64,000 bases of DNA from Opitutales bacterium (GTDB taxonomy: Bacteria > Verrucomicrobiota > Verrucomicrobiia > Opitutales > JABSRG01): the NCBI GenBank assembly GCA_049599475.1, contig JBMYOQ010000007.1:49800-113799 (forward strand), read 5' to 3'. The notes under the pieces were generated by a model that was not told where the DNA came from, did no database searches, and worked only from the letters and a program-made list of their open reading frames with translations. Shown here in pieces: positions 9,804-24,395 of this stretch. Numbering within the stretch: position 1 is the first letter of the stretch; each line of letters starts with the position of its first letter. The position numbers and the translations under genes are program-made.

Positions 9804-11090
9804 ATGCGTGTTCTGCTGACTTCCCATGGCTCCACTGGAGATATTTACCCTGTTATTAGACTGGGACGCGCTCTGGTCGACGCGGGCCACGAGGTAAAGT
9901 TTGCCACGGTTACGCTGTTTAAGGAGGAAATCGAGGCTGCCGGAGTCGAATACGTATATCTGCCCCCAGATTGGGACCAGTCGGGATTTGCCGAGGCGAT
10001 GCGCGATCTGGCTCAGGTGAAAGATAACCTCCAACTGTTAAAATCAATTTACGGGGAAGCAGTTCCCTATCTTCAAGAGATCATAACGAATCTCACTGAG
10101 CACATGCCGTGGTGTGATTTGATGGTGTCCAGCTACGTCTTTTCGCCGCTCAAATCTCTGGCTGATAAATTTCATAAGCCTTTTGCTACGCAGCTGTTTG
10201 TGCATGATTTTATCCCCTCCCGGCGCGTTACTCCGCACCCCATTTGGGGGCTACGAGGTTGGCCGCGGGGAGTGCAGGATGCCTGGAATGCGATGTGGTG
10301 GCGTATCATCGACCGGGTACTCGTGAGTGCGATTCATGAGGTGTTGGGCACTGAGCTCAAGGCCGCGGGTCTAAAACTACCTGAGAGTTTTCTGCAACAT
10401 CCGGCAAATTTGAGCCTTGTGACACTCTCCGGTGATCTCTTTCGCCCAGAATTTGAGGAGCATCCGGATCAGTTCCAGTATTCCGGCTACCTGCGCTGGC
10501 AGGCGAAGGAAGATCCCGAGTTGGATAAGGAAGTCGAAGCCTTCACTGAGGGCGAGCCCGTCCCGATTTTAACATTTGGTTCGGTGACTTTCGAAAAACA
10601 GCGCCGCGTGATGTCGCGCTTCATGAAGCATTGGCCCAAAGGCAAAAAGATTATCGTCCAGGAGGGCTGGGCGGGGCTGACTGTTGCTCGACCTCGACCC
10701 GAAATCAAAGTCGTCGGCAAGGTGTCGCACGACCAGTTGTTTAAGCACGCCTCAGTGATCATCCACCACGGAGGATCGGGGACGACGGGAACCGCCTTTC
10801 ACGCCGGGAAGCCACAGATCGTGATTCCGCATTTCGGCGATCAATACTTCTTTGGAGATGAGGTAGAACGCCTCGGCTGCGGTTATCATTTGAAGCGCCG
10901 CCGCTGGCCAGAAAATCTACCGAGCGTAATCCGTAAAATTCACCGGCATACCCGGTTTGCCGATCGAGCTAAAGAAGTCGCCGACATCTTGGCCAAGGAA
11001 GATGGACCCGGAAATGCCGCTAAGATTCTCGAAAAATACGCCGAAGAAGAGCAGGAGCGGATCGACGAAGCGGTCGGGGAGGAAAGGTAG
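9804..11090 (+). CDS. GT1/GT28-type glycosyltransferase (sterol/lipid glucosyltransferase-like)
   Basis: MRVLLTSHGSTGDIYP, HHGGSGTT, PHFGDQYF; ATG at 9804. Confidence 0.88.
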   Translation: MRVLLTSHGSTGDIYPVIRLGRALVDAGHEVKFATVTLFKEEIEAAGVEYVYLPPDWDQSGFAEAMRDLAQVKDNLQLLKSIYGEAVPYLQEIITNLTEHMPWCDLMVSSYVFSPLKSLADKFHKPFATQLFVHDFIPSRRVTPHPIWGLRGWPRGVQDAWNAMWWRIIDRVLVSAIHEVLGTELKAAGLKLPESFLQHPANLSLVTLSGDLFRPEFEEHPDQFQYSGYLRWQAKEDPELDKEVEAFTEGEPVPILTFGSVTFEKQRRVMSRFMKHWPKGKKIIVQEGWAGLTVARPRPEIKVVGKVSHDQLFKHASVIIHHGGSGTTGTAFHAGKPQIVIPHFGDQYFFGDEVERLGCGYHLKRRRWPENLPSVIRKIHRHTRFADRAKEVADILAKEDGPGNAAKILEKYAEEEQERIDEAVGEER

Positions 11091-11163
11091 TGAAGGATGA
11101 AGGATGAGGGATGAAGGATGAAATTTTAGCGCGTCAGCCTTTCATCCTTCATCCCTCATCCTT
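11091..11163. repeat. inverted repeat built of tandem heptamers (GGATGAR)n; likely bidirectional terminator/mobile-type repeat
   Basis: Perfect 24-bp arms 11100-11123 and 11140-11163, 16-nt loop, between convergent genes. Confidence 0.85.
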
Positions 11164-12879: not shown

Positions 12880-14709
12880 TTAGTCTTCGGGAAGAGTTCG
12901 ATCAGCGATGATGCCGAGGAGTTCCGTGAGGAATTCTTCCGGTTTCTTGAGACCCTCGAGTGCTTTATTGGTTCGAGAGTTTACCTTTATGAGCCCTTCT
13001 TCAGCTTCCTTTTTACCCAGTACGAGGAACGTCGGCACTTTGTCTACGTGGCACTTGCGGATCTTCGCTCCTAGTTTGTCGGCAATAGCATCGACCGTTA
13101 CGCGAATCTTAGCAGCCTTTAGGAGCTTTTCGATTTCGCGTGCTTGCGGAACAAGGTCGTCATTCATCGGAAGGATACGCACTTGTTCTGGGGCCAACCA
13201 TATCGGGAAATTGCCTGCAAAGTGCTCGATCAATACTCCGGTGAAACGCTCAAGCGATCCGAACGGAGCCCGGTGAATCATAACCGGGCGGTGCTTCTCG
13301 TTGTCCGGACCAATGTATGTGAGGTCAAAGCGTTCGGGTAGATTGTAGTCGACTTGAACAGTACCCAACTGCCACTCGCGGCCCAAAACATCTTTGACCA
13401 CGAAATCGATCTTGGGACCATAGAATGCGGCTTCTCCAGGCTCCTCGGTGTATGGGACTCCGAGCTCGCGGACAATTTCGCGAAGCGCGTCTTCTGCTTT
13501 GTCCCAAGATTCGGGTTCGCCGACATACTTTGAGCTGTCAGGATCGCGCAGAGAGACGCGGACGCGGTAGTCACCCATATCTAGGGTTTGGAAAACGGTT
13601 TTGACCAAGTCTAGGCAGCCCCGAATTTCGTCGGCCAGCTGTTCTTCTGTACAGAAAATGTGGGCGTCGTCCTGAGTGAAGCCCCTTACCCGAGTCAGGC
13701 CGTTGAGCTCTCCAGATTGTTCCCAGCGATAAACAGTGCCGAATTCGGCGAGGCGCACGGGTAGGTTGCGATAGCTGTGTGGCTCCGAATCAAAGATCTT
13801 GATGTGCATCGGGCAGTTCATCGGACGGAGCATAAAACCATCCATTTCACCGCTCTCGAGCTGGCTAGCGTATTCGCCAGCAGTGACACCGCCTTCAGCA
13901 ACTTTGTCAAAATCATCGCGTTCAGGAATCGCTGCGAATTGGCTTTCCTTGTAATAAGGGAAGTGGCCAGACGTGCGGAATAGATCGAGTTTTCCAATGT
14001 GTGGGGTGTAGACGATCCCGTAACCAGCGTTGCGTAATTCCTCGGAGATAAAGTCCGTAAGTGCCTCACGGACAATAGCGCCTGCGGGTTTCCATAGGAT
14101 CAGGCCTTGTCCCACCTCACTATCGATTGTGAATAGCCCCAGTTCTTTGCCCAGTTTGCGGTGGTCGCGCTGCTTGGCTTGTTCGAGCTGTTCGAGATAA
14201 GTCTCCAGTTCTTCCTTTGTTGGGAAGGCAGTGCCGTAGATGCGTTGGAGCTGCTTATTGTTCTCGTCGCCACGGTGATAAGCACCTGCGATCGAAAGCA
14301 GCTTAAAGGCTTTGATCTTCTTTGTGTATCCCACGTGCGGCCCTGCGCACAGGTCGACGAATTCACCGTTTTGGTAAAAAGAAATGGTGTCGCCTTCGGG
14401 AATGTCGGCGAGACGGCCCAGCTTATAGGTTTCCTGGCCAGCTTCCTTAATGATAGCGGTCGCTTCCTCGCGAGATACTTCGCGGCGTTCAAAGCGCTGG
14501 TTCTCTTTCACCACCTTCTTCATCTGAGCCTCGATCTTCTCGAGGTCCTCGAAGGTCAGCTTGTGGTCCAAGTCGATATCGTAGTAAAATCCCGTGTCTG
14601 TAGGCGGACCGATATCGAGCTGTGCCTCGGGGAAGACCCGAAGAACGGCTGTAGCTAGGACGTGAGCGGCCGAGTGGCGAAGCTCCTCAAGCGGAGACAT
14701 GTCTTTCAT
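12880..14709 (-). CDS. thrS: threonine--tRNA ligase (no N-terminal TGS domain)
   Basis: RHSAAHVLA, DLCAGPH, RDHRKLG, PMNCP, GLTRVRGFTQDDAH, FYGPKID, MIHRAPFGSLERF. Confidence 0.98.
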   Translation of the reverse strand: MKDMSPLEELRHSAAHVLATAVLRVFPEAQLDIGPPTDTGFYYDIDLDHKLTFEDLEKIEAQMKKVVKENQRFERREVSREEATAIIKEAGQETYKLGRLADIPEGDTISFYQNGEFVDLCAGPHVGYTKKIKAFKLLSIAGAYHRGDENNKQLQRIYGTAFPTKEELETYLEQLEQAKQRDHRKLGKELGLFTIDSEVGQGLILWKPAGAIVREALTDFISEELRNAGYGIVYTPHIGKLDLFRTSGHFPYYKESQFAAIPERDDFDKVAEGGVTAGEYASQLESGEMDGFMLRPMNCPMHIKIFDSEPHSYRNLPVRLAEFGTVYRWEQSGELNGLTRVRGFTQDDAHIFCTEEQLADEIRGCLDLVKTVFQTLDMGDYRVRVSLRDPDSSKYVGEPESWDKAEDALREIVRELGVPYTEEPGEAAFYGPKIDFVVKDVLGREWQLGTVQVDYNLPERFDLTYIGPDNEKHRPVMIHRAPFGSLERFTGVLIEHFAGNFPIWLAPEQVRILPMNDDLVPQAREIEKLLKAAKIRVTVDAIADKLGAKIRKCHVDKVPTFLVLGKKEAEEGLIKVNSRTNKALEGLKKPEEFLTELLGIIADRTLPED

Positions 14710-14815
14710 GGCAATAGATGCAGGTTGAGTTAAACGCTAGGGCGTAACACAGGAGGACGCTTCTGCCAAGGATTGGATGCAAAGAAGCGCCGCTTTCAAG
14801 GGAGGGGCCTGTTCG

Positions 14816-14839
14816 GGAGGGACGCTGTCCCAGCGTCCG
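14816..14839 (+). repeat. GGAG-type REP hairpin
   Basis: GGAG-GGACGCTG-TCC-CAGCGTCC-G; same design as the REPs beside the RAYT at 23.5/24.3 kb. Confidence 0.7.
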
Positions 14840-14876
14840 TTCGGCGTGGTCATGGTCCGCTCGCACCCCCTCTTCA

Positions 14877-16055
14877 CTAGAATTGTGGGAAACCGGGGTC
14901 GTTATTCTCAACGATGGCTAGGCCCTCAACTTCGATGAGCCAATCTGGACGGCATACCGAGCCCGCGACGATGATACTGGGCGTATCGCCCATGCGTATT
15001 TTCCATTCTCTTTTGATTACTCTAGAATCTGCAGGGTCGCGTAAATAAATGAGCCAATGTTGCATGTCGCTGAGGCCTGCCTTGGCTTCTTTCAGGAGCG
15101 CATCCACATTCTCGATCGCACGTGCGAGTTGGTTCACCACATCGTTTTTGTGCAATACTTCGCCATTAGAATCTATACTTGCGGTGCCTGATATGAAGAT
15201 GTGTTTGCGGTCCTGGTAACTTATGGCTGTGGCTCGTTCAAAGCGCACGCCGTAGCGGTCTGTTCGGCTAAGGTAGTCCGCCGCTTGCAAGTATTGTATC
15301 TGGCCTTGAGATAGTCCCGATACGGAATAGGTATCCATGGATACACGGGCCTGTGGATGTGCGAGACGCGCTTCGATACCGGTGCTTGCGATGTAATGAG
15401 AATGCGGGTTCAATCCCTCTCGATCAAACACTTCATTGCGACCACTTACGACGCCGGCGTAATTGTGGTCGACATCGCGGACGTGTAGCCATGTGCGCAC
15501 CGCCTCGTTTAAGAGAGTGCCGCGGATATGAGAGAGTTCATGTGTGTATTGATCGAACACCGATACCGTTTGCTCGTGGGTGGAGTGTTCGCCGGGATCA
15601 GTGAGTCCGGTGCTCCAAACGTGTTGCAACTTGCCCCGAGTGCGTTTCCAAGTGCTCTTTCCGATCTGAGTAATGTCCGAGTCATTATCTACGACATGAT
15701 ATGCTAAAAGCACCATCTTACTGCCATTCATGGGTGCCTGCCCGATCATTGAGACCGCACATTCCTCTCTCGAGCCTAGAGGGTGTCGCTCTAATTCGAT
15801 ACACTGGTTAATCACATCGCTTAGGAAAAAGCGTCTCCAGATGGCAGATCCATTTTTAATGCCCAGTTGTTCAAGAGTCTTTAAATAGACGGTCTGAGTC
15901 GTGTCTAGTTGCTCGGAAAAACTCCCTGTAGCGAGTGGTTTTACGATAATATGAAACTCATTCGCGGTTGAGGAATTTCCGAATCGTGAAATCTCCACTT
16001 CGGCTCGAGGGTCATCAAATTTTATGCTGAGCTTCATCTTTTTAAACGGATTCAA
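14877..16055 (-). CDS. Rid/YjgF-fold protein, chorismatase (FkbO/Hyg5)-like, two-domain
   Basis: HYIASTGI, FERAT, IFISGTASID, IYLRD, VCRPDWLIEVEG; no signal peptide; start TTG 16055 or ATG 16037. Confidence 0.8.
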   Translation of the reverse strand: MNPFKKMKLSIKFDDPRAEVEISRFGNSSTANEFHIIVKPLATGSFSEQLDTTQTVYLKTLEQLGIKNGSAIWRRFFLSDVINQCIELERHPLGSREECAVSMIGQAPMNGSKMVLLAYHVVDNDSDITQIGKSTWKRTRGKLQHVWSTGLTDPGEHSTHEQTVSVFDQYTHELSHIRGTLLNEAVRTWLHVRDVDHNYAGVVSGRNEVFDREGLNPHSHYIASTGIEARLAHPQARVSMDTYSVSGLSQGQIQYLQAADYLSRTDRYGVRFERATAISYQDRKHIFISGTASIDSNGEVLHKNDVVNQLARAIENVDALLKEAKAGLSDMQHWLIYLRDPADSRVIKREWKIRMGDTPSIIVAGSVCRPDWLIEVEGLAIVENNDPGFPQF

Positions 16056-17842
16056 AGAGTGTGGACGTATTCAATAAGTTGATCCAATTCTTCGGAAGAG
16101 AGTTGATCGGTCTCTCCGTGCATGTGCTCTGGGTTAAATCGTGTCATGGATTCATGGATGCTTGTTGCGCGCCCGTCGTGTAGGTAGGGGGCTGATCGCC
16201 AAACTTCTCGTAGAGTAGGTACATCGAATTTTAACTCACTTTCATCGTCGATTCCGGTTCCGACCCACTCGAGAGCCTTGTTTGTGTAGTTGTTGCCGTT
16301 GTGGCATTCCGCACATCCCGCTTTACCGCGAAAGAGGCGTTTCCCTTGTTCAGCGCTTGGGCTCAGGTTTCCGTCGATTAAATAGGGGCTAGGTGTTTGG
16401 CTGAGTGAGCTCAGGTAAAAGTCGATCGCCTGGGCATCCGACTCAGGCATAGCACTCCTTAGGAACTTGATTCCAGCACGCACGGAAGTCTCTGCATTGG
16501 GTCTGATCCCAGTGACGGTTGTCGGAGGCGTCTGGTGTGCAAGCAGGAGAGATTTTGCCTGGCGTGGGGTGCCTACGCCGTCATTCTCTAAGTCCCAGTT
16601 CAAGGCATCGGTTCGAGCATCTGGGTGGCAGCTCGCACATGACATCCAGTTCTGAAAACTATGCATAGCGTTGTGAAAATGAAATTCTCCCTGACGCGAA
16701 GCTCTTAGAGCTTTGGGCGGAAGTTCAAGTGATATTTCGGATTCAGACGAGCTGAACCTTTCGACTGCGTTGTTAAAGTAGGACGCGATTAGTAGACTAT
16801 TACTTTGAGGGTCGAAGGATAAGGCTCTTGGGCCGAGGCCCTTCAGGTCGAAGCGCCTCTTCCATGCATAGCCGAGGCGTAAATCATAGCCCATTTGCTC
16901 GCGCTCTTGCTCGGAGAATGACTCTAGAGTTTGAATAAGTGCGGGATAGTCTATCTCAATGATCTGGTGCGTCCCAGATAGGCTTACCCAGGCTTTTGTA
17001 TCGCTTATTTGAATATCCCATGGATTGGCCGCGCCACGATACAGATCATCCAGTAACAAGGTGCCGAGCATCTTAGCATTGTCTAAATCGATTACGGACA
17101 AGCCGTTTTTAATGATCCATCCACGTTCGATTTGCGTGGCCGGCACGCGATGGCTTCCGATCGTCATGGCTGATAGAGCGTAGCGCTTGTCAGGAGTGAG
17201 TGCGAGTTTGCGGGCACCAGAGCTGCCATCCTCGAGTGGGATTTCCGTTATGCGACCATTGCGTGTATTGAGCTTCGCGATACTCACGCCGGTCCAGTCT
17301 GCATTTGCGGACCGATCGCTGAGGTGATGAAGTACGACGAGTTCACTATCGTGTCTCCAATGGAGGTCGACGGGTTCGCGCAATACGGGGTGCTTTGCGC
17401 TTATTTGCCAGGTGCGCGCATCGTAGATCCAAACTTCGTTTTTAAAGCGCTGAGAAATTGCGAGCTGAAATCCGTCGGGACTGAAACAGGGGGCCTGAGG
17501 GCTGTGTCCAGCTTTGAAGGATTTCTTAGTCTTAAGCGATTTTGATTCGAGAATGTGTATATATCCGGTTCCTACGCCGCCGGTGACAATCAAAGATCCC
17601 GAATCTTGGGAAAGAGTCATACCCATTGGAAGGGCGGGCAGGGTGGTCCTGGCGATTAATTCATTGTCCCTGGAGAACCGATAGATCTCGTTGGTCAGGG
17701 ATGCTGCAAGATAGTATGATCCATCCGAAACCTGCAGAATATTTTCGAGACCCCAGTCGCCCTCGTATTCCGTATTCCCGTAAAGGCCAGCGAGCATGAG
17801 CCCGAAGGATAAAGCAGTGACCTGGAGCCATTTTAACATCAT
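16052..17842 (-). CDS. secreted YVTN-type beta-propeller + dihaem cytochrome c (CCP/MauG-like); hydrazine synthase beta/gamma-like architecture
   Basis: Signal peptide; propeller repeats; CASCH (16625-16639) and CAECH (16301-16315); FDVPTLREVWRSAPYLHDGRA. Confidence 0.82.
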   Translation of the reverse strand: MMLKWLQVTALSFGLMLAGLYGNTEYEGDWGLENILQVSDGSYYLAASLTNEIYRFSRDNELIARTTLPALPMGMTLSQDSGSLIVTGGVGTGYIHILESKSLKTKKSFKAGHSPQAPCFSPDGFQLAISQRFKNEVWIYDARTWQISAKHPVLREPVDLHWRHDSELVVLHHLSDRSANADWTGVSIAKLNTRNGRITEIPLEDGSSGARKLALTPDKRYALSAMTIGSHRVPATQIERGWIIKNGLSVIDLDNAKMLGTLLLDDLYRGAANPWDIQISDTKAWVSLSGTHQIIEIDYPALIQTLESFSEQEREQMGYDLRLGYAWKRRFDLKGLGPRALSFDPQSNSLLIASYFNNAVERFSSSESEISLELPPKALRASRQGEFHFHNAMHSFQNWMSCASCHPDARTDALNWDLENDGVGTPRQAKSLLLAHQTPPTTVTGIRPNAETSVRAGIKFLRSAMPESDAQAIDFYLSSLSQTPSPYLIDGNLSPSAEQGKRLFRGKAGCAECHNGNNYTNKALEWVGTGIDDESELKFDVPTLREVWRSAPYLHDGRATSIHESMTRFNPEHMHGETDQLSSEELDQLIEYVHTL

Positions 17843-18739
17843 CTAGAAATTTTCTTCTGAGAACGGGTGCCCGTTGGGCAGATAGGCGATGCCTGCGACT
17901 TTGTCATACCCGTCTAGGTACCAAGAGTGCACGATCTTTTTGAGATTTGGATCGAATTCGAAAAGGTCAGGAAGGTCTTTGTGCTTATGCCATGTGGCGA
18001 CTAAGAGATTGCCCCCTGGAAGTAATGTAATCCCTGTCGCCGGCACCGCTTTTGCCAGCCCGAGGTCTTCGGAGAACTTTAGCGTCCATTCGTGATTTCT
18101 ACGCTTATCGAAGCTGGCTAGTGCATTGCGGTAAGCGATGAATGTGCCGCCATCTTCCCGGCGAAGAGCTGAGGTGATTGTAGGGAGGTTTCGAATCTCC
18201 CATATTACCTCGTGAGTGTCGGGGGCGATCTCGCGAAACACGCCTGCATTTGTCATGGGGACGAGTAAATTGCGACCTCCTTTAACGACATAGCGGAATT
18301 GACCGTGGGTCTTTGATTTGAGTGGGGACACACGAGTGGTTCGAATTGCCGCGCCATTGTGATCGAGCGTGACCAGTTCACCTTTACCCTCATGGGCAAT
18401 GAGGTATTTCCCTTTTTCTAGGGTGAGGGCAGTCGCGTTTTCAGCTCCGGCAGGGACATGGTAATTCCAAATGGGTGAGCCATCTCTTGCGAGAAGCCTG
18501 GCACCGTCGATAGTCGCACAAAAGATCTCACCTGTTTCGGTGGTGCTGACCTGCTGCGGGTGCTTGAGGCCCTGCTGAGAGCGCCATACGACATCTCCTT
18601 CTCTATTTATTGCGAATAGGGCATCTGGACTATGGCTCGTCAGTAATATGTGGTCGCCTTCAATTAGCTGCCCCTCATACGCCATAGCGGAAGTAATCCA
18701 TAAACAGGCGGCTCCGAATAGATGCTTTAGCATGCTCAT
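17843..18739 (-). CDS. secreted beta-propeller protein (PQQ/arylsulfotransferase-like repeats)
   Basis: Signal peptide ending AMA; repeated 'G.VVW', 'GSPIW', 'EVIWE', 'HEW' blades. Confidence 0.65.
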   Translation of the reverse strand: MSMLKHLFGAACLWITSAMAYEGQLIEGDHILLTSHSPDALFAINREGDVVWRSQQGLKHPQQVSTTETGEIFCATIDGARLLARDGSPIWNYHVPAGAENATALTLEKGKYLIAHEGKGELVTLDHNGAAIRTTRVSPLKSKTHGQFRYVVKGGRNLLVPMTNAGVFREIAPDTHEVIWEIRNLPTITSALRREDGGTFIAYRNALASFDKRRNHEWTLKFSEDLGLAKAVPATGITLLPGGNLLVATWHKHKDLPDLFEFDPNLKKIVHSWYLDGYDKVAGIAYLPNGHPFSEENF

Positions 18740-21700
18740 TTGTTATCTTTCTCTTCGATGACTATACGGAAGCCCACGTCGTGAACTTTTTGCCAAGCAT
18801 GGTATGCTAGGCGGTAGGAGGCTGTGGCTCTGTAAGGGCGATCTCGATACGAACCACCACGCACGACTCGACGCAATTGGGGATCGTCAGCACTGGAAGA
18901 ATTTGAATCCACAAAGGGGTAAGGGCGATTTACAGAACGGGTCCATTCGGCTACGTTGCCGTGCATGTCGTAGAGACCCCAAGGGTTGGGTAGGTATGTG
19001 CCTGGAGAGGTCTGTATTTGCTGACCGTCGTTTACTCCTTCGATATAGGGTATCCACATCTCATGGCGGTTGGGATTAGTCATAGTCACGATCTTGGTGT
19101 AGCGCGGGCTGCCGGAAGCGGTATTTTCCCCGAAGCGTTTCATGCTCGCGTCGCTCAGGTTCGCAAATGTCGAGAAGTCTGTATTCAATTCCCCATACCA
19201 AAAGCTGCTCTCCCGACCCGCTCTTGCGGCCCATTCCCATTGTGCTTCTGAGGGAAGGCTTACACAGTAGCCAGTTTTCTCGCTTAGCCACTCACAGAAC
19301 GCCATTGCGGTTTTCCAGGAGACACGAACTGCTGGAAGTTCATCGCCATTTACAGAGATGCCCTCTTGTCCAAACTGTAGATTCAGGCGATCTTCCATGC
19401 GAGAATTGTGGTCTAATACGAAGTGACGCAATTGCTGGTTCGTAATTTCCTTGGAGGACATCCAAAATGCCTTTTCGATTTTTACGGAATGGCGAGGAGC
19501 CTCAGCTTGGGTCTCAAGATTAGACCCCATTGTGAAAGTGCCTGAAGGGATTGGAAGCATGTCGATCAGCTCGCCATCGCCTAGGTCGATTTGAATCGAC
19601 GTTGATTGAGTGTCCGTTACTTCAACGCTGAAATCTGATTGCTCCGCACTTGGAGTATTGGGGGCAGTCACTGGGTTCTGTATATGTTTTACCAATACAG
19701 CTTTTGCCTCTGGAGGATCTAAATGGACGAAATTGTCTCGACCCGCGTATTTTTGGCTGAGTTCATTGCCTCGTGCAAAGGTCCGCTCCAACTTTTCGCG
19801 ATTGATGGTACGGTGTTTTATATCCTGAACGAGATCTCTGCGATAGCCGTGAAAGGGAGCGTTGTAGTCCATCCACGTTTTGAGATGAAGCAGCTCCTTT
19901 TCAGTCAGAACAACACCGTGGTGTCCTTTTTCTAGAATTTGGGTCAGCTCAGAGACAATTGCACCGTACTCACCCGGATTGGGGACATCCATTGGGCTCT
20001 CGGTCCCAGGGTGGCGAACGAGGCTATGAAGGGTCATGTAACTCTCTGTGAATTTGCCTCCGTAGATGGGGTTTGCAGCACCACCCGAGCGGTTTTCGTA
20101 ATCGTTTATAGGGGTTGCTCGGAGGTCGGGTATGCCATCCGCGAATTCTGGACGCCGGGTGGTGAATCGCCCATTGCTGGCTTGGCCGTCGTGACAGCTT
20201 ACGCAGTTTGCATCGAGTATGGGCTGTATTTCATGGGCGAAGCTTATGGGACGTGCAATATCGAGCCAGGTAGTGAGGGGCTTGGGCTCTTGGATGCTTG
20301 CTAGAGTTGCTGTGGGGCGCGGCATATCGCTCGCAGGTTCGTGACAGCCGACACAGCTCATGCGTTCTCCTCCCATTGCTGTGGCCCAAGAACGCATGCC
20401 TTGCAGGGCCTGACCATGTTTATCCAGGGGTTGAAAAAACAGAGGTGTTTTCGAAGGGATTTTTGCCGTGAGAGAACCGTCTTCATTGACAGGGGTTACG
20501 CCGATCACCGTTTTTACATCCCAACCGCTATCAACACCGATTGTCCCCGGATGACCTCCGGCTCCGCCATGGGGTGAGAATTGATAGGTCCCGATACGGA
20601 GTTGTTTTACGGTGCCTCGAGGAATGTCTTTGAGGCCGGGGCCGTGATAGATGTCTTGGACGTAGATTGTAGCCTCGTCGCTATCGGGTTTTATGAGGGA
20701 CGGAATGACCGGGGGCTTTGTTTGCTTGCGCAAGGGGATCGGTTCCAGAAAGCCTTTACCTTCTTCTTCCCAGAGTAATACCGCATTGTCATAGATATCT
20801 ACGAGATATATGCCGCGAAGCAGGTCGAAATCACGTTGCATGCTTACGAGAAAAAACTCGCCTGCGCCCGCATGCGTCCCTTCCTGGGCGAGTGGGAAGG
20901 GGTGTAGGATTTGAGGCATCACATCGTGCATAAGGGGATCCTTTACGACACGCTTTACCTTCTTGTTGTAACCAGGTAGCTCCCGGACGACTGCTTTTTC
21001 ATTTTGAGTGTGTACCGCAGGATCAATTACAATCATACGACCGACACGCATGGGCCCGTGGTGACCGCTGATCGTGCCAACAATTTGACTCGGGTGTCCT
21101 GGAATGGGGCGAGCGTAGAAGAAGCTCGCGGGGAAATAGCTGTTGCTGAAAGCGATACTCTTTTGGCCGGAACCGTCGGGATTCATGACCATCAAGACGC
21201 GATTATTACTGTGCTGCATATCGCTATATTCCCAGCGCGTATACATAACACGCCCGTCTTGGAGCATTGTAGGATACCATGATGTGTCTTGGTCGAAGCC
21301 CAGCTGTCGGACTGTTTGACGATCCTTTTCCATGCGATAGAGGCTCGCCATTCTCGGTATCCCGTTGATACAGGGCATGCCTAAAAATGTGGCGGTGGAT
21401 GCGAAAATGATGCCGCCATCTGGAAGATATACACCGTCGAAGTGGTCTACGTCGCTTCCATCATCGGGGCCGAGCTCCACAGGGGAACCTCCGCGTAGAT
21501 CCATTTCGAACAGGCGGTAAGCTCTGTCCTTCGGTCGTGACATGGAAAACATAATACGCTCTGCATCGTAGTGTAGGTCGACGTAGTTAATGTTTCCTCC
21601 GTGTTCAGAATGATAAACCGTCTCACGCTCAACGGTATCCGAAAAAACGTTCTTCAGCCGTATAATACTCGTGTCCCACCCATTGCGCTGGGACTGGGCG

Positions 21701-22080
21701 AGGCTATTGTAATTACCCTTAGCTAAACCTAAGTTCCTTCCATCTGCTTCGCGGGCTCTCTCTCCCAATACGCGTTCGATTAAAAGAATGTCTGTGAAAT
21801 CGAGGGATGGATTGGAGAGAAGTGCCTTACGTTGAAGGTTTTTAATGGCATAATAATCCGCGTCGGAGAGCGTCGCGAGTTCTTCGAGGAAGCGTTCGCC
21901 AGGATAGGCGTCTTTATGAGTTTCTTCGATAGCGAGAATGGCTCGTGTCAATGTGGTCCTAATTTCAGACGCGGTTCGTGCGAAATAGTAGCCGTCAGCT
22001 GCTCGCGTTGAGCCTGCGGCGATCAGGAATATGGCCCACAGCGCACATATGCTTTTGGGGCTTCGATACATAGCTAGCAT
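18736..22080 (-). CDS. secreted hydrazine-synthase-alpha-like dihaem protein fused to C-terminal FGE/SUMF1-fold domain
   Basis: Signal peptide; TolB-like propeller (DGVYLPDGGIIFAST, PTMLQDGRVMYTRWEY, MNPDGSGQ); middle domain VNEDGS...FFQPLDKHGQALQGMRSW..GGERMSCVGCHE; second CVSCH; FGE domain FTMGS, LPSEAQWEWAARAG, NPWGLYDMHGNVAEW, RGGSY, GFRIV. Confidence 0.82.
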   Translation of the reverse strand: MLAMYRSPKSICALWAIFLIAAGSTRAADGYYFARTASEIRTTLTRAILAIEETHKDAYPGERFLEELATLSDADYYAIKNLQRKALLSNPSLDFTDILLIERVLGERAREADGRNLGLAKGNYNSLAQSQRNGWDTSIIRLKNVFSDTVERETVYHSEHGGNINYVDLHYDAERIMFSMSRPKDRAYRLFEMDLRGGSPVELGPDDGSDVDHFDGVYLPDGGIIFASTATFLGMPCINGIPRMASLYRMEKDRQTVRQLGFDQDTSWYPTMLQDGRVMYTRWEYSDMQHSNNRVLMVMNPDGSGQKSIAFSNSYFPASFFYARPIPGHPSQIVGTISGHHGPMRVGRMIVIDPAVHTQNEKAVVRELPGYNKKVKRVVKDPLMHDVMPQILHPFPLAQEGTHAGAGEFFLVSMQRDFDLLRGIYLVDIYDNAVLLWEEEGKGFLEPIPLRKQTKPPVIPSLIKPDSDEATIYVQDIYHGPGLKDIPRGTVKQLRIGTYQFSPHGGAGGHPGTIGVDSGWDVKTVIGVTPVNEDGSLTAKIPSKTPLFFQPLDKHGQALQGMRSWATAMGGERMSCVGCHEPASDMPRPTATLASIQEPKPLTTWLDIARPISFAHEIQPILDANCVSCHDGQASNGRFTTRRPEFADGIPDLRATPINDYENRSGGAANPIYGGKFTESYMTLHSLVRHPGTESPMDVPNPGEYGAIVSELTQILEKGHHGVVLTEKELLHLKTWMDYNAPFHGYRRDLVQDIKHRTINREKLERTFARGNELSQKYAGRDNFVHLDPPEAKAVLVKHIQNPVTAPNTPSAEQSDFSVEVTDTQSTSIQIDLGDGELIDMLPIPSGTFTMGSNLETQAEAPRHSVKIEKAFWMSSKEITNQQLRHFVLDHNSRMEDRLNLQFGQEGISVNGDELPAVRVSWKTAMAFCEWLSEKTGYCVSLPSEAQWEWAARAGRESSFWYGELNTDFSTFANLSDASMKRFGENTASGSPRYTKIVTMTNPNRHEMWIPYIEGVNDGQQIQTSPGTYLPNPWGLYDMHGNVAEWTRSVNRPYPFVDSNSSSADDPQLRRVVRGGSYRDRPYRATASYRLAYHAWQKVHDVGFRIVIEEKDNK

Positions 22081-22096
22081 AGGGGAAATTTTTGAG

Positions 22097-23248
22097 TTAA
22101 GCGGCAGATTCTAAGATTTTCATTACATCTTGGTGACTGTAGTCGCTGATGCCCCAACGTTTACCTAAATCGATTGCGTCGGTGGCAATCGATGGAATTT
22201 CGTTAATCGGAATTTTACCTTCTGTGAGCGTAGTTGGACTGTCGATACTCCGGAACCATGCTTCCAGAGCGTCGATGCCCGCTGCGGCCGAATCCAGACC
22301 AAACACTTCACGGGCGAATTGTGTCAGTTTTGAGGCATAGCGGTCTTGGACGTATCGCATCCACGCGGGCATTACGATAGATAGCCCCGCTCCGTGAGCG
22401 ATATCGTAGCGACCGCTTAGAGGGTGCTCTATCATGTGATTTGGGAAACCCATATTGCCGACCCCGGATACGCCCAAACCATTCCATGCAAGCGTGGCAG
22501 CCCACATCATTGTGGATCGTGCTTCGATGTCTTGCGGATCCTTCATTATGCGGTCGGTGGTTTCGATAATCGTTTTCACGAGCCCTTCCACGTATCGGTC
22601 TTGAATCGGTGTCCACCGGGCATCTCCAGTGAAGTAGCCTTCAATGAGGTGCGATATCGCATCGACTCCAGCATAAGCGGTGTAGTCTAAGGGAATGGTG
22701 AGCGTGAGCTCAGGGTCCATCAATGCTGCTTTAGGGAACAGATGCTCGGAAAAGAACCCAAATTTCTCTTTTGTATCATCATTGGTGATGACTGAGCACG
22801 AATTCATCTCGGAAGCCGTCGCTGGAAGGGTGGGCACTGTGATAATGGGCAATCCGGTTTGTGGTGTAGCTTCGCCGCTGTAGAAATCCCAAGGATCTCC
22901 CGCATGGTGAACGCCTACGGCTATTCCTTTGGCTTCATCCATTACGCTGCCACCTCCTACAGCGATGATGACATCGACTTGAGAGGAGCGTGCACGATCA
23001 ATGCCTTCGCGTAAATGAGAGAGCGACGGGTTCGATTTTACACCGGAGAATTCTGTTACCTGCCCGAAGCCTACTGAACGCAGCGACTTTAATATTTTTT
23101 CGTAGGTACCATTCTTTTTGATACTCTGTTTTCCGTAAACAAGCAACGCGTGGTTACCGTAGCTCGCTGCGATGGGGCCAACTGAATCGGATGCGGCACC
23201 TTGTGCAAAAACAACTTTGGTGGGATTATAGAACTCGAATGCTTTCAT
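22097..23248 (-). CDS. iron-containing alcohol dehydrogenase (BdhA/YqhD-like)
   Basis: FEFYNPTKVVF, AVGGGSVMD, TLPATASEMN, DAISHLIE, HMIEH..S..YDIAHGAGL. Confidence 0.93.
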   Translation of the reverse strand: MKAFEFYNPTKVVFAQGAASDSVGPIAASYGNHALLVYGKQSIKKNGTYEKILKSLRSVGFGQVTEFSGVKSNPSLSHLREGIDRARSSQVDVIIAVGGGSVMDEAKGIAVGVHHAGDPWDFYSGEATPQTGLPIITVPTLPATASEMNSCSVITNDDTKEKFGFFSEHLFPKAALMDPELTLTIPLDYTAYAGVDAISHLIEGYFTGDARWTPIQDRYVEGLVKTIIETTDRIMKDPQDIEARSTMMWAATLAWNGLGVSGVGNMGFPNHMIEHPLSGRYDIAHGAGLSIVMPAWMRYVQDRYASKLTQFAREVFGLDSAAAGIDALEAWFRSIDSPTTLTEGKIPINEIPSIATDAIDLGKRWGISDYSHQDVMKILESAA

Positions 23249-23495
23249 GAGATCATGGGCTTATCGGGGGGATTGGATATATGCTGTGGATTGTGCGGTG
23301 TGTCCTTGTTTCACCACTTACACAGGAAAATAACCCTATGATCTTACTCTTGAGACATTGTGTTTTACATCCGCGAGCGTTGTTAATTGGCTTAATTTAT
23401 TTGATTAGTATGGCTAATCGTGAAGCCCTACTTGATAAGGCTTATGAATGCGGTGCTCGTCGAACTGAGTCTGAGAATTTCGGATGTTTATGAAG

Positions 23496-23565
23496 GGAGG
23501 GGCGATGTCCTCAGCGCCTTGGTTCGTGGCAAAGGTTCAACGGACCATGAGGACATGGTCCCTCC
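23496..23565. repeat. inverted doublet of GGAG-type REPs (REPIN/BIME-like)
   Basis: GGAG-GGGCGATG-TCC-TCAGCGCC (23496-23518, +) and GGAG-GGACCATG-TCCT-CATGGTCC-G (23541-23565, -). Confidence 0.78.
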
Positions 23566-23586
23566 CGATGAGATCTTGTTAATGTA

Positions 23587-24057
23587 TCACCAACGAAGCT
23601 TCGTAATTTCCCCATGGTAGGGCCATTCATCAGGTTCATCCACTAACCCGGCTCGAACTGGGTTCTGTTTAGCGTACTCCCATTGAGTCGAATAGTGTTC
23701 TCCGTTGCGCATCTGCGTATCCCAACAGCCTTTCAGCCAAAGGTCTCTCTGGCTTTGGAATTCAGATGCCTTCGAAACAAGGGTTTTCCAATATTTGATC
23801 CAAAGGTTGAGCGGTACTCTATCTACCCTCGAAGGTGAACAGAAAAGGTGGATGTGATCGGGCATTAAAACATACTTTCCTACAGCCCAGTGGTCCGCTA
23901 TTGCCCACGCTTCGACGAGGCATTTATGAGCTTCTCTGTTATTGAATGCGGGTCGACGATTTTTCGAGCATACCGTGACGAACAGAATATTCGGTCGACC
24001 TGCGATATCTAGAATCGAATTTTTAGAGGGGCTTTTTCGTTGAACGCTCTGACTCAT
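23587..24057 (-). mobile_element. REP-associated tyrosine transposase (RAYT, Y1 HUH family)
   Basis: FVTVCS, YVLMPDHIHL (HUH), W..GCWDTQMR, Y..QNPVRAGLV...WPY; REPs on both sides. Confidence 0.88.
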
Positions 24058-24188
24058 GCAAATTGAGACGCCGGCGCTCTTCTGAATTTCAGTTCAATTT
24101 CAATCCCACCCAAAGGTCGCTGGGGACTTCGGACGGAGGCTTGCCGGAGATGGCGAAGCAATGGCGCTGCATTTAGGGTGATGTCATC

Positions 24189-24316
24189 GGTAGCGGCCGA
24201 TTTCCGAGCGGCCGAATGCGGCGTATCAGCTGGGCGAGATTGCTGTCTTCCACCGCTCGGAGATGGGTGGCTACCCCTATTTTTCTCTAAAGCGCTATTG
24301 GGGACAGCGACCCTCC
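24189..24316. repeat. REP cluster: inverted GTAG-type doublet plus degenerate GGAG-type REP
   Basis: GGTAG-CGGCCG-ATTTCCGAG-CGGCCG (24189-24214, +); GGTAG-CCACCC-ATCTCCGAG-CGGTGG (24250-24275, -); GGAG-GGTCGCTG-TCCC.. (24292-24316, -). Confidence 0.72.
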
Positions 24317-24395
24317 CTGGAATTCTCAAGGGCGCAATGTATCTTTCGGACAGCCTAAGAGACAGTCCCTTTCAAAAGGCACTCTTACCCCTGTT

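Follow-up and report, generated by a model that had tools for sequence, protein, structure and literature searches.

The window analysed here is the whole of a 64,000-nucleotide stretch of contig JBMYOQ010000007.1 (GenBank assembly GCA_049599475.1, an Opitutales bacterium), and it carries a five-gene operon whose products include two proteins related to the hydrazine synthase (HZS) of anammox bacteria. All five open reading frames lie on the minus strand. In gene order they encode a cytoplasmic, YqhD-like iron-containing alcohol dehydrogenase (ADH) of 383 amino acids (22097-23248; PF00465, 165 bits, and PF25137); an HZS-alpha-like secreted dihaem protein of 1114 amino acids (18736-22080; PF18582, 93 bits; PF03781, 147 bits; CxxCH at residues 576 and 626); a secreted, Mala_s_1-like beta-propeller of 298 amino acids (17843-18739; PF22701, 47 bits); a fused HZS beta-gamma-like protein of 596 amino acids (16052-17842; CCP_MauG, PF03150, 38.5 bits; CxxCH at 402 and 510); and a cytoplasmic protein of 392 amino acids with an FkbO/Hyg5 chorismatase fold of the Rid superfamily, here called Rid-like (14877-16055; PF01042, 45 bits; TIGR04444, 51 bits). 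The successive junctions are a 16-bp gap, an ATGA overlap, an abutment of TAG and ATG, and a TTGA overlap. An earlier note on this DNA had proposed five co-oriented, coupled genes with these ends, junctions and domains, and all were recovered, including the PF18582, CCP_MauG and FGE-sulfatase (PF03781) matches. The last overlap requires a TTG start at 16055 for the Rid-like gene; an ATG at 16037 agrees better with the start of the homologue in a Verrucomicrobiales metagenome-assembled genome (locus L002), and a start there would turn the overlap into a 14-bp gap.

Export was judged from the maximum Kyte-Doolittle value over 11 residues at the N-terminus, a crude criterion rather than a signal-peptide predictor. 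Hydrophobic N-termini were found in the alpha-like protein (2.8), the small propeller (1.65) and the beta-gamma-like protein (2.0), while the ADH (0.8) and the Rid-like protein (-0.07) have no hydrophobic stretch there. The assembly of the operon is supported by a single contig of the likely source run, which covers positions 13796-24158 at even depth, and by a second marine study in which 29 of 30 bins of the operon region are covered, in pieces.

The HZS-like scaffold

The alpha-like protein consists of a helical N-terminus, a propeller of the six-bladed type, the HZS_alpha middle domain, a second haem domain and a domain with the fold of formylglycine-generating enzyme (FGE). Its AlphaFold model has a pLDDT of 91.9, and the top Foldseek match is the alpha subunit of HZS (5c2v_A, E 3.6e-26, TMt 0.62). 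The beta-gamma-like protein joins a seven-bladed propeller to a dihaem domain of the CCP/MauG type (pLDDT 91.6). Its propeller superposes on 5c2v_B with a Z score of 42 and a root-mean-square deviation of 2.1 over 333 residues, the next fold reaching a Z score of 32.5, and its haem domain finds 5c2v_C as the best sequence match (E 9e-25). The HZS-shaped scaffold is made of two proteins, alpha and the fused beta-gamma. The earlier note's full HZS-like scaffold stands for these two and falls for the small propeller as a separate beta subunit, which was ruled out because that protein lacks the HZS beta insertion loop and matches no NCBIfam HZS model. Judged by its sequence, the small propeller is an accessory extra partner; His145 and Arg149 are invariant in it, and of its top 150 homologues 11 are fusions with an alpha core and one is a fusion with a beta-gamma protein.

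All four haem motifs are invariant. They are CVGCH (alpha residues 576-580, 20341-20355, haem alpha-I), CVSCH (626-630, 20191-20205, haem alpha-II), CASCH (beta-gamma residues 402-406, 16625-16639, haem gamma-I) and CAECH (510-514, 16301-16315, haem gamma-II). Haem alpha-II probably retains its distal histidine, the likely ligand being His720, which is kept in 89 of 89 and 54 of 58 sequences and aligns within one residue of alphaHis772. Haem gamma-II probably does so as well through His575, whose position is a histidine in 68 of 82 beta-gamma homologues. The propeller insertion loop of the beta-gamma-like protein (residues 229-245, 17108-17158) is conserved and is the counterpart of HZS beta 245-260.

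We modelled alpha residues 94-602 with beta-gamma residues 27-490. The pair reached a score of 0.64, whereas none of the three controls exceeded 0.00, so that the interface which the earlier note expected among the secreted proteins is predicted for these two. At least 85% of the contacts agree between runs and the partner pLDDT is at least 82; the pass mark is one attained by 116 of 157 solved pairs and by 2 of 215 mismatched pairs. The beta loop 229-245 contacts alpha residues 573-591 beside haem alpha-I in the model, and the HZS loop 245-260 lies beside the same haem in the accessible text of 10.1101/2023.01.22.525020. Since 5C2V has already been solved, the pass may reflect likeness only. 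Independent support for the association of alpha with beta-gamma is the natural fusion at locus L066, a chain of alpha, FGE, PKD and beta-gamma domains of 3111 amino acids.

The residues that define HZS are another matter. The four NCBIfam HZS models NF052339-NF052342 give 43, 53, 87 and 120 bits against cut-offs of 800, 560, 625 and 1250. Counted by hand on the PDB alignments, the haem ligand alphaTyr591 aligns to Ser584, the zinc ligand alphaCys303 to Asn313, and betaGlu253 to Gln237, a glutamine in 75 of 82 beta-gamma homologues. A 12-residue deletion removes the gamma segment with Cys165 (the third haem link), Arg167 and Asp168, the last being the distal acid in HZS (10.1101/2023.01.22.525020, accessible text), and alphaCys303 is reported not to be universal even among anammox bacteria (PMC12758564, accessible text). 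The position of the inter-haem tryptophan of CCP and MauG (Trp94/Trp93; the gammaHis144 position) is Val443, with tryptophan in 7 of 82 homologues. Both HZS sites lack their catalytic residues, and the enzyme of this operon is not a hydrazine synthase.

A different set of residues is conserved in the alpha propeller. The codons of Cys237, Arg282, Trp283, Glu284, Tyr285, His340 and His341 span 21058-21372 and mark, by conservation, a clade-specific site. Cys237, Tyr285 and His341 are present in 58 of 58 diverse alpha cores (26-61% identity) and Arg282 in 57 of 58; among 52 further alphas from metagenomes and named records, Cys237, Tyr285, His341 and Arg282 are found in 50, 50, 48 and 52. The cysteine, arginine and histidine of the site are missing in both of two FG-GAP-linked alphas. 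In the model, Cys237, Arg282, Tyr285 and His341 would all lie in loops of one propeller face, opposite the beta-gamma contacts, and this appears to be the face that bears Cys303 in HZS.

The FGE/SUMF1-fold domain of alpha (PF03781, 18760-19563) has PvdO (5hha) as its nearest fold. Formylglycine-generating enzyme carries a copper-binding catalytic cysteine pair near its C-terminus. The domain lacks this pair, Cys929 and Cys939 being the sole cysteines past residue 800, and is likely a binding module.

The chorismatase-like gene and the spread of the module

The profile of the Rid-like protein finds the chorismatases Hyg5 (5ag3, E 7e-27) and FkbO (4bps) as its best PDB matches. Tyr199, Arg206, Gly226, Arg274, Gly290, Cys368 and Glu375 are invariant in 35 of 35 sequences; the roles assigned to them are those that we take the FkbO residues to have. 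Glu375 corresponds to the Hyg5 acid Glu334, and Gly226, Gly290 and Cys368 to the three subfamily residues, while 20-21 of 21 Rid-like copies in other contexts keep the Hyg5-type catalytic residues too. This Gly/Gly/Cys set is named as the CH-Hyg5 signature in the accessible text of PMC7170507. The TIGR04444 score, at 50.9 of 325 bits, is below the cut-off, and the protein departs from true chorismatases in the ENP/Tyr stretch.

We surveyed an even draw of 301 Verrucomicrobiota genomes. Beta-gamma is present in 63, PF18582 in 60 and both in 58, which bears out the conserved co-occurrence that the earlier note looked for, and 57 of the 58 also have the Rid-like gene. This gene, mostly single-copy, occurs in 114 of the 301 genomes: in 110 of 115 with beta-gamma or a PPC-domain protein, compared with 4 of 186 with neither, related genomes in this count not being independent. 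It accompanies the low-copy beta-gamma and not the alpha paralogues. In seven genomes alpha reaches the limit of 16 scored candidates. Because only the best four beta-gamma candidates per genome were scored, the asymmetry in copy number is firm only where all candidates were scored, as in G226 (one beta-gamma, at least 16 alphas) and G209 (one and 15). The family is very large, with 1344 and 4117 clusters among 7999 scored candidates; a single-protein scan of genome contigs gave two loci only.

Gene neighbourhoods point to the same core. At 41 beta-gamma loci of the phylum (L002 and 40 picked for long contigs and spread over families), the Rid-like gene lies nearby in 24, the alpha middle domain in 19 and either in 34. 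The metagenome set comprises the best 80 of 594 loci, collapsed to 53 groups; in the 17 groups with 4 kb on both sides, alpha is found in 14, Rid-like in 6 and either in 15. The neighbour proteins scanned were 104 of 124 for alpha, 64 hand-picked for beta-gamma, 62 of 175 for the metagenome set and 30 of 107 for Rid-like, and gene calling was incomplete: 3 of 40 regions around alpha yielded no alpha gene. ADH is close to beta-gamma in 1 of the 41 phylum loci (L002) and beside the module in 0 of the 53 metagenome groups, and its best NCBIfam match (NF011717, 228 bits) is under the cut-off of 645. It is outside the conserved core.

Akkermansia muciniphila has an alpha, beta-gamma and Rid-like trio that is transcribed, its beta-gamma being Amuc_1291 (PMC6538878 supplement). 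The genes lie next to a sulfate-assimilation cluster (PMC8262928), an adjacency judged incidental, as the other loci scanned have no such link. Bacteroides thetaiotaomicron matches PF18582 and TIGR04444; the NF052342 search is uninformative on its beta-gamma, since that model missed the window's own gene.

Several loci show variants of the module. CcsA/ResB genes adjoin beta-gamma in 6 of the 41 phylum loci, and the operons at L054, L070, L047 and L036 consist of beta-gamma, a chorismatase-like gene, ResB and CcsA, which suggests cytochrome c maturation dedicated to the module in small genomes. At L061-L063 the operon encodes a dihaem cytochrome, beta-gamma, a dihaem protein of 1039-1065 amino acids, two stand-alone FGE-fold proteins and a chorismatase-like protein; the large dihaem proteins were considered as alphas and rejected, being beta-gamma-like, and no PF18582 gene was found in these genomes. 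Locus L049 has a LamG-beta-gamma fusion with a PATR-bearing alpha.

The host is a seawater bacterium of the same class as genomes with proteins recorded as Akkermansia. Its genome gives 109 sulfatase matches, three matches to haem-copper oxidase subunit I, one CcsA-like gene and one PF18582 gene. PF13447 (the HAO family, to which hydrazine dehydrogenase belongs) is unmatched in this 96.6% complete genome, as it is in the control genomes, and an NrfA search returned a 22-bit fragment only. Eleven further gamma-like dihaem domain matches (24-28% identity) lie on contigs C14, C16, C18, C40, C41, C47, C54, C66 and C107.

The operon is probably a mobile unit. All five genes recur in L002 in unchanged order, with identities of 75, 55-65, 30, 54 and 53%, and an alpha gene occurs in 0 of 6 genomes of the host's family and in 2 of 40 relatives, a patchy distribution. 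Around the operon, within the region of about 8-32 kb covered by domain annotation, are a REP-associated tyrosine transposase (NF047646, at the cut-off) and short inverted repeats (23587-24057, 23495-23566, 24189-24317 and 14813-14831). Related GGGAGGG..TGTCC elements occur on both flanks, with 10-14 copies in the host genome. Positions of about 11000-11120 and 24130-24270 share a repeat of high depth in the source run, where a contig joint connects the two places; a repeated element is a more probable cause than an excision. Promoter and terminator scans stayed at chance level.

Possible chemistry of the complex

The reading that we favour, with confidence a little short of even, is that the complex oxidises carbohydrates in the periplasm and yields an unsaturated product, which a cytoplasmic enzyme then hydrolyses. 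From homology and the model, the alpha-like and beta-gamma-like proteins would be exported, loaded with four c-haems and assembled into an HZS-shaped complex in the periplasm. Alpha would be the substrate-specific subunit, through the Cys237/Arg282/Tyr285/His341 site and its appended binding modules (here the FGE fold), and the low-copy beta-gamma may be a redox partner common to many alphas, with the small propeller as a putative accessory subunit. A product with an enol ether or imine could then be imported, and the Rid-like enzyme would protonate and hydrolyse it. The resulting keto-sugar or aldehyde might pass to isomerase, kinase and aldolase cassettes in some genomes and to the aldehyde reductase here.

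Several observations point to carbohydrates, and of the two options raised in the earlier note, nitrogen chemistry or a sugar or organic substrate, the latter is the better supported. NPCBM, F5/8-type or LamG modules occur in 25 of 120 listed alpha homologues (hand count), and PA14 is also found in relatives. The module of Parabacteroides distasonis, like that of one Aureibacter record, is accompanied by a D-lyxose-isomerase-like cupin (E 2e-9), a 104-amino-acid protein, DhaK, DhaL and an enzyme of the LsrF family (471 bits, above the cut-off of 297). At locus L156 the order is sensor, SusC, SusD, beta-gamma, Rid-like, lyxose-isomerase-like, 104-amino-acid protein, DhaK, DhaL, LsrF-like, propeller and alpha. 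The 104-amino-acid protein has no family match, and we read in its sequence a possible glyoxalase-like pattern. DhaK is found in 5 and the LsrF-like gene in 4 of the 53 metagenome groups, which span 38-64% GC, and both in two of three named Bacteroidota records. An aldose-ketose isomerase, a ketose kinase and a class I aldolase/thiolase would together dismantle a keto-deoxy-sugar, which is the product expected from hydrolysis of a sugar enol ether. One IclR subfamily is present in 10 of 84 module loci.

A number of results weigh against this reading. The host genome gave no match to the isomerase, DhaK/L, LsrF or IclR queries; the neighbours of the operon in the window are genes of the housekeeping type (threonyl-tRNA synthetase, a ferrochelatase-like protein, the transposase), and no electron acceptor gene was found near it. 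Carbohydrate-active enzymes account for 7 of 49 genes beside alpha and for 7 of 87 genes drawn at random from these two genomes, no clear enrichment (p 0.26); once sugar-catabolic enzymes are counted too, the numbers become 17 of 49 and 16 of 87 (p 0.04), a comparison that is post hoc and clustered. In Akkermansia without mucin, neither beta-gamma (0.74-fold, padj 0.07) nor the Rid-like gene (0.77-fold, padj 0.16; PMC6538878 supplement) changes significantly, and G226, with its many alphas, has no Rid-like match. The Rid-like gene is also found in a haem-free operon with DUF1549/DUF1553, DUF1501 and PPC-domain genes, in 11 of 19 loci of genomes lacking the module, and a second copy in G210 lies in an iron-uptake operon (L240:6576-11530), between an imelysin and dihaem DHOR pair and FecCD genes. 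Its role may for this reason not be the hydrolysis of sugar products. The haem-free four-gene operon recurs at L223-L226, L228, L229, L231-L234 and L241, and its DUF1501 protein has a Tat-like start. The idea that the HZS-like and DUF1501/PPC systems exclude each other was considered and rejected, as 26 genomes carry both.

A gene common to unrelated secreted systems should serve something they share: a product that is imported, or a precursor that is exported. On the second of these, the chorismatase-like enzyme would act upstream, making a small chorismate-derived acid (3-hydroxybenzoate-like), or some other cofactor or mediator, for export to unrelated periplasmic systems, and the haem complex would handle redox or metals and not sugars. 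We consider this, the main rival, somewhat unlikely. The fully retained Hyg5-type residues, the 110 of 115 co-occurrence and the pairing with low-copy beta-gamma speak for it, as does the response of a second Akkermansia Rid-family gene beside an iron ABC operon (Amuc_1932), which rises by 5.4 log2 with catechin (PMC12552655 supplement); the L240 copy, we infer, corresponds to this gene. The Akkermansia module genes themselves, however, show no significant change in any of six polyphenol contrasts (every padj above 0.2), the TIGR04444 score and the altered ENP/Tyr stretch speak against a true chorismatase, the genomes behind the co-occurrence are related and thus not independent, and the carbohydrate modules, SusC/D and the DhaK/LsrF cassette are left unexplained. 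Nitrogen-oxide chemistry, in which beta-gamma would reduce NO or peroxide and hydroxylamine or a similar oxidant would tunnel to alpha for nitrogen transfer, oxidation of an organic substrate or detoxification, draws on the HZS geometry that the model retains, including a beta loop next to haem alpha-I, and on the invariant haem motifs. It looks decidedly doubtful, given the deleted gamma segment, Gln237 in place of betaGlu253, the lost alphaTyr591 and alphaCys303, Val443 at the tryptophan position and the lack of a recurrent nitrogen-oxide gene among the scanned neighbours, where one prismane/Hcp gene was found in 104 alpha neighbours. The same missing residues leave the channelled reactive intermediate and the N-N or N-O chemistry of the earlier note unsupported.

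The near-invariant Cys237 and Arg282 could instead serve sulfur chemistry. SoxA and TsdA have a cysteine at the haem, and Cys237 might likewise be catalytic or haem-ligating while Arg282 binds a sulfo group, for the oxidative desulfation or desulfonation of sugars. The host is rich in sulfatases, which also occur among the neighbours, and one protein, P0472, is a sulfatase-alpha-propeller fusion of 2538 amino acids; nevertheless sulfatases are frequent in random regions too (2 of 87), the SoxA/TsdA Pfam match of alpha is weak (E 0.075), and strand topology would place Cys237 in a loop across the propeller from the beta-gamma contacts, which together make this proposal improbable. That the host is an anammox organism not yet recognised as such, and the operon encodes its genuine hydrazine synthase, is barely conceivable despite homology to all three subunits: the scores of 43-120 bits compare with cut-offs of 560-1250, the proteins lack the catalytic residues, the genome is that of a verrucomicrobium rich in sulfatases and equipped with haem-copper oxidases, and the accessible text of PMC12758564 reaches the same verdict on such homologues.

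The carbohydrate oxidoreductase reading can be extended to a bolder and rather unlikely form. The module would then represent an unrecognised, very large class of haem-coupled periplasmic carbohydrate oxidoreductases able to work in the absence of O2, of which HZS is a specialised offshoot and which is present and transcribed in A. muciniphila. In each alpha paralogue Cys237, Tyr285 and His341 would form a metal site or a protein-derived one, possibly with a galactose-oxidase-like Cys-Tyr cross-link, made or re-oxidised by the MauG-like beta-gamma, with one beta-gamma serving many alphas. Oxidation would lead to elimination and an enol ether, and the reaction would be finished by the chorismatase-fold hydrolase common to the DUF1553/DUF1501 system.

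Relation to known systems

The HZS-like operon belongs to a known and common family, frequent in glycan-degrading bacteria, and the published relatives have no assigned function. The earlier note was right that a non-anammox bacterium carries such an operon and was anticipated in print. Co-located alpha and fused beta-gamma homologues of non-anammox bacteria, in clades I-IV, lacking HZS residues and with no function assigned, are described in the accessible text of Hagglund et al. 2025 (PMC12758564), and a broader HZS-related family with other substrates is proposed in that of Suarez et al. 2023 (PMC10732223). The HZS half-reactions are the subject of 10.64898/2026.02.25.707902, as its accessible part indicates. 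The names Akkermansia and Parabacteroides occur in the accessible supplement of PMC12758564, so the branch of the window was probably sampled there and is most likely its clade IV; its main text, in the accessible version, mentions no Rid gene and uses neither "formylglycine" nor "carbohydrate". In the literature searched, which mostly excludes subscription papers, no function is described for this branch, as the earlier note had supposed, nor are its FGE, Rid-like, carbohydrate or DUF1501 links. The full texts searched yielded no paper naming both DUF1501 and DUF1553, and the tags Amuc_1289-1293 are absent from their main texts and from the supplements of PMC4960237 and PMC7671984. For the co-occurrence numbers, the alpha expansion, the clade site, the loci with SusC/D and the cassette, and the Rid link, we found no earlier description in the literature searched.

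The branch bears on the origin of HZS and on the role of its many non-anammox relatives. Its members number in the thousands, with an expansion in glycan specialists, and its presence in cultured, genetically workable gut bacteria (Akkermansia, with Amuc_1291 and its neighbours, and P. distasonis) makes it directly testable. Specific residues, substrates and genes for such tests are offered by the clade site of alpha, the loci with SusC/D and the isomerase-kinase-aldolase cassette, and the near-obligate chorismatase-like partner, an enzyme that links the HZS-like and the DUF1553/DUF1501 proteins, both large orphan families. PF18582 matches are unsafe as markers of anammox.

Compared with the FkbO and Hyg5 chorismatases (4BPS, 5AG3), the Rid-like protein shares the fold over about 250-270 profile positions, the catalytic glutamate, both arginines, the tyrosine and the Gly/Gly/Cys set. 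It differs in scoring far under the family cut-off, in having no natural-product cluster and in being tied to secreted complexes. The dihaem peroxidases bCCP, MauG and BthA resemble the gamma-like domain, which differs in its unconserved inter-haem tryptophan and its fusion to a propeller; by hand alignment, the positions that we take to be the distal Gln/Glu pair of bCCP and MauG are not conserved either. The copper radical oxidase galactose oxidase and quinohaemoprotein amine dehydrogenase (QHNDH) combine a propeller with a protein-derived cofactor of the Cys-Tyr or Cys-Trp type, and galactose oxidase bears an F5/8-type (CBM32) module, as many alphas do. Both enzymes are absent among the Foldseek and sequence matches shown for alpha, and by analogy any likeness would be convergent.

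As far as the accessible text of PMC12758564 goes, the operons described there likewise have alpha upstream of a fused beta-gamma with unconserved HZS residues; clades I-III have FG-GAP or ABC-binding genes that the locus of the window lacks, and the window's proteins differ in lacking the inter-haem tryptophan and in apparently keeping the alpha-II distal histidine. Anammox HZS (Kuenenia, 5C2V; Scalindua, with a fused beta-gamma) shares with the operon proteins the alpha, beta and gamma folds, four CxxCH haems, co-located genes, the beta insertion loop, the likely bis-histidine haems alpha-II and gamma-II and the predicted alpha/beta-gamma interface. The operon proteins have no equivalents of Tyr591, Cys303, Glu253 or Cys165/Arg167/Asp168, whereas their alpha has extra N-terminal helices, an FGE domain and its own Cys/Arg/Tyr/His site. 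Unlike anammox HZS, this clade is tied to a chorismatase-like gene, and its alpha has multiplied in many genomes.

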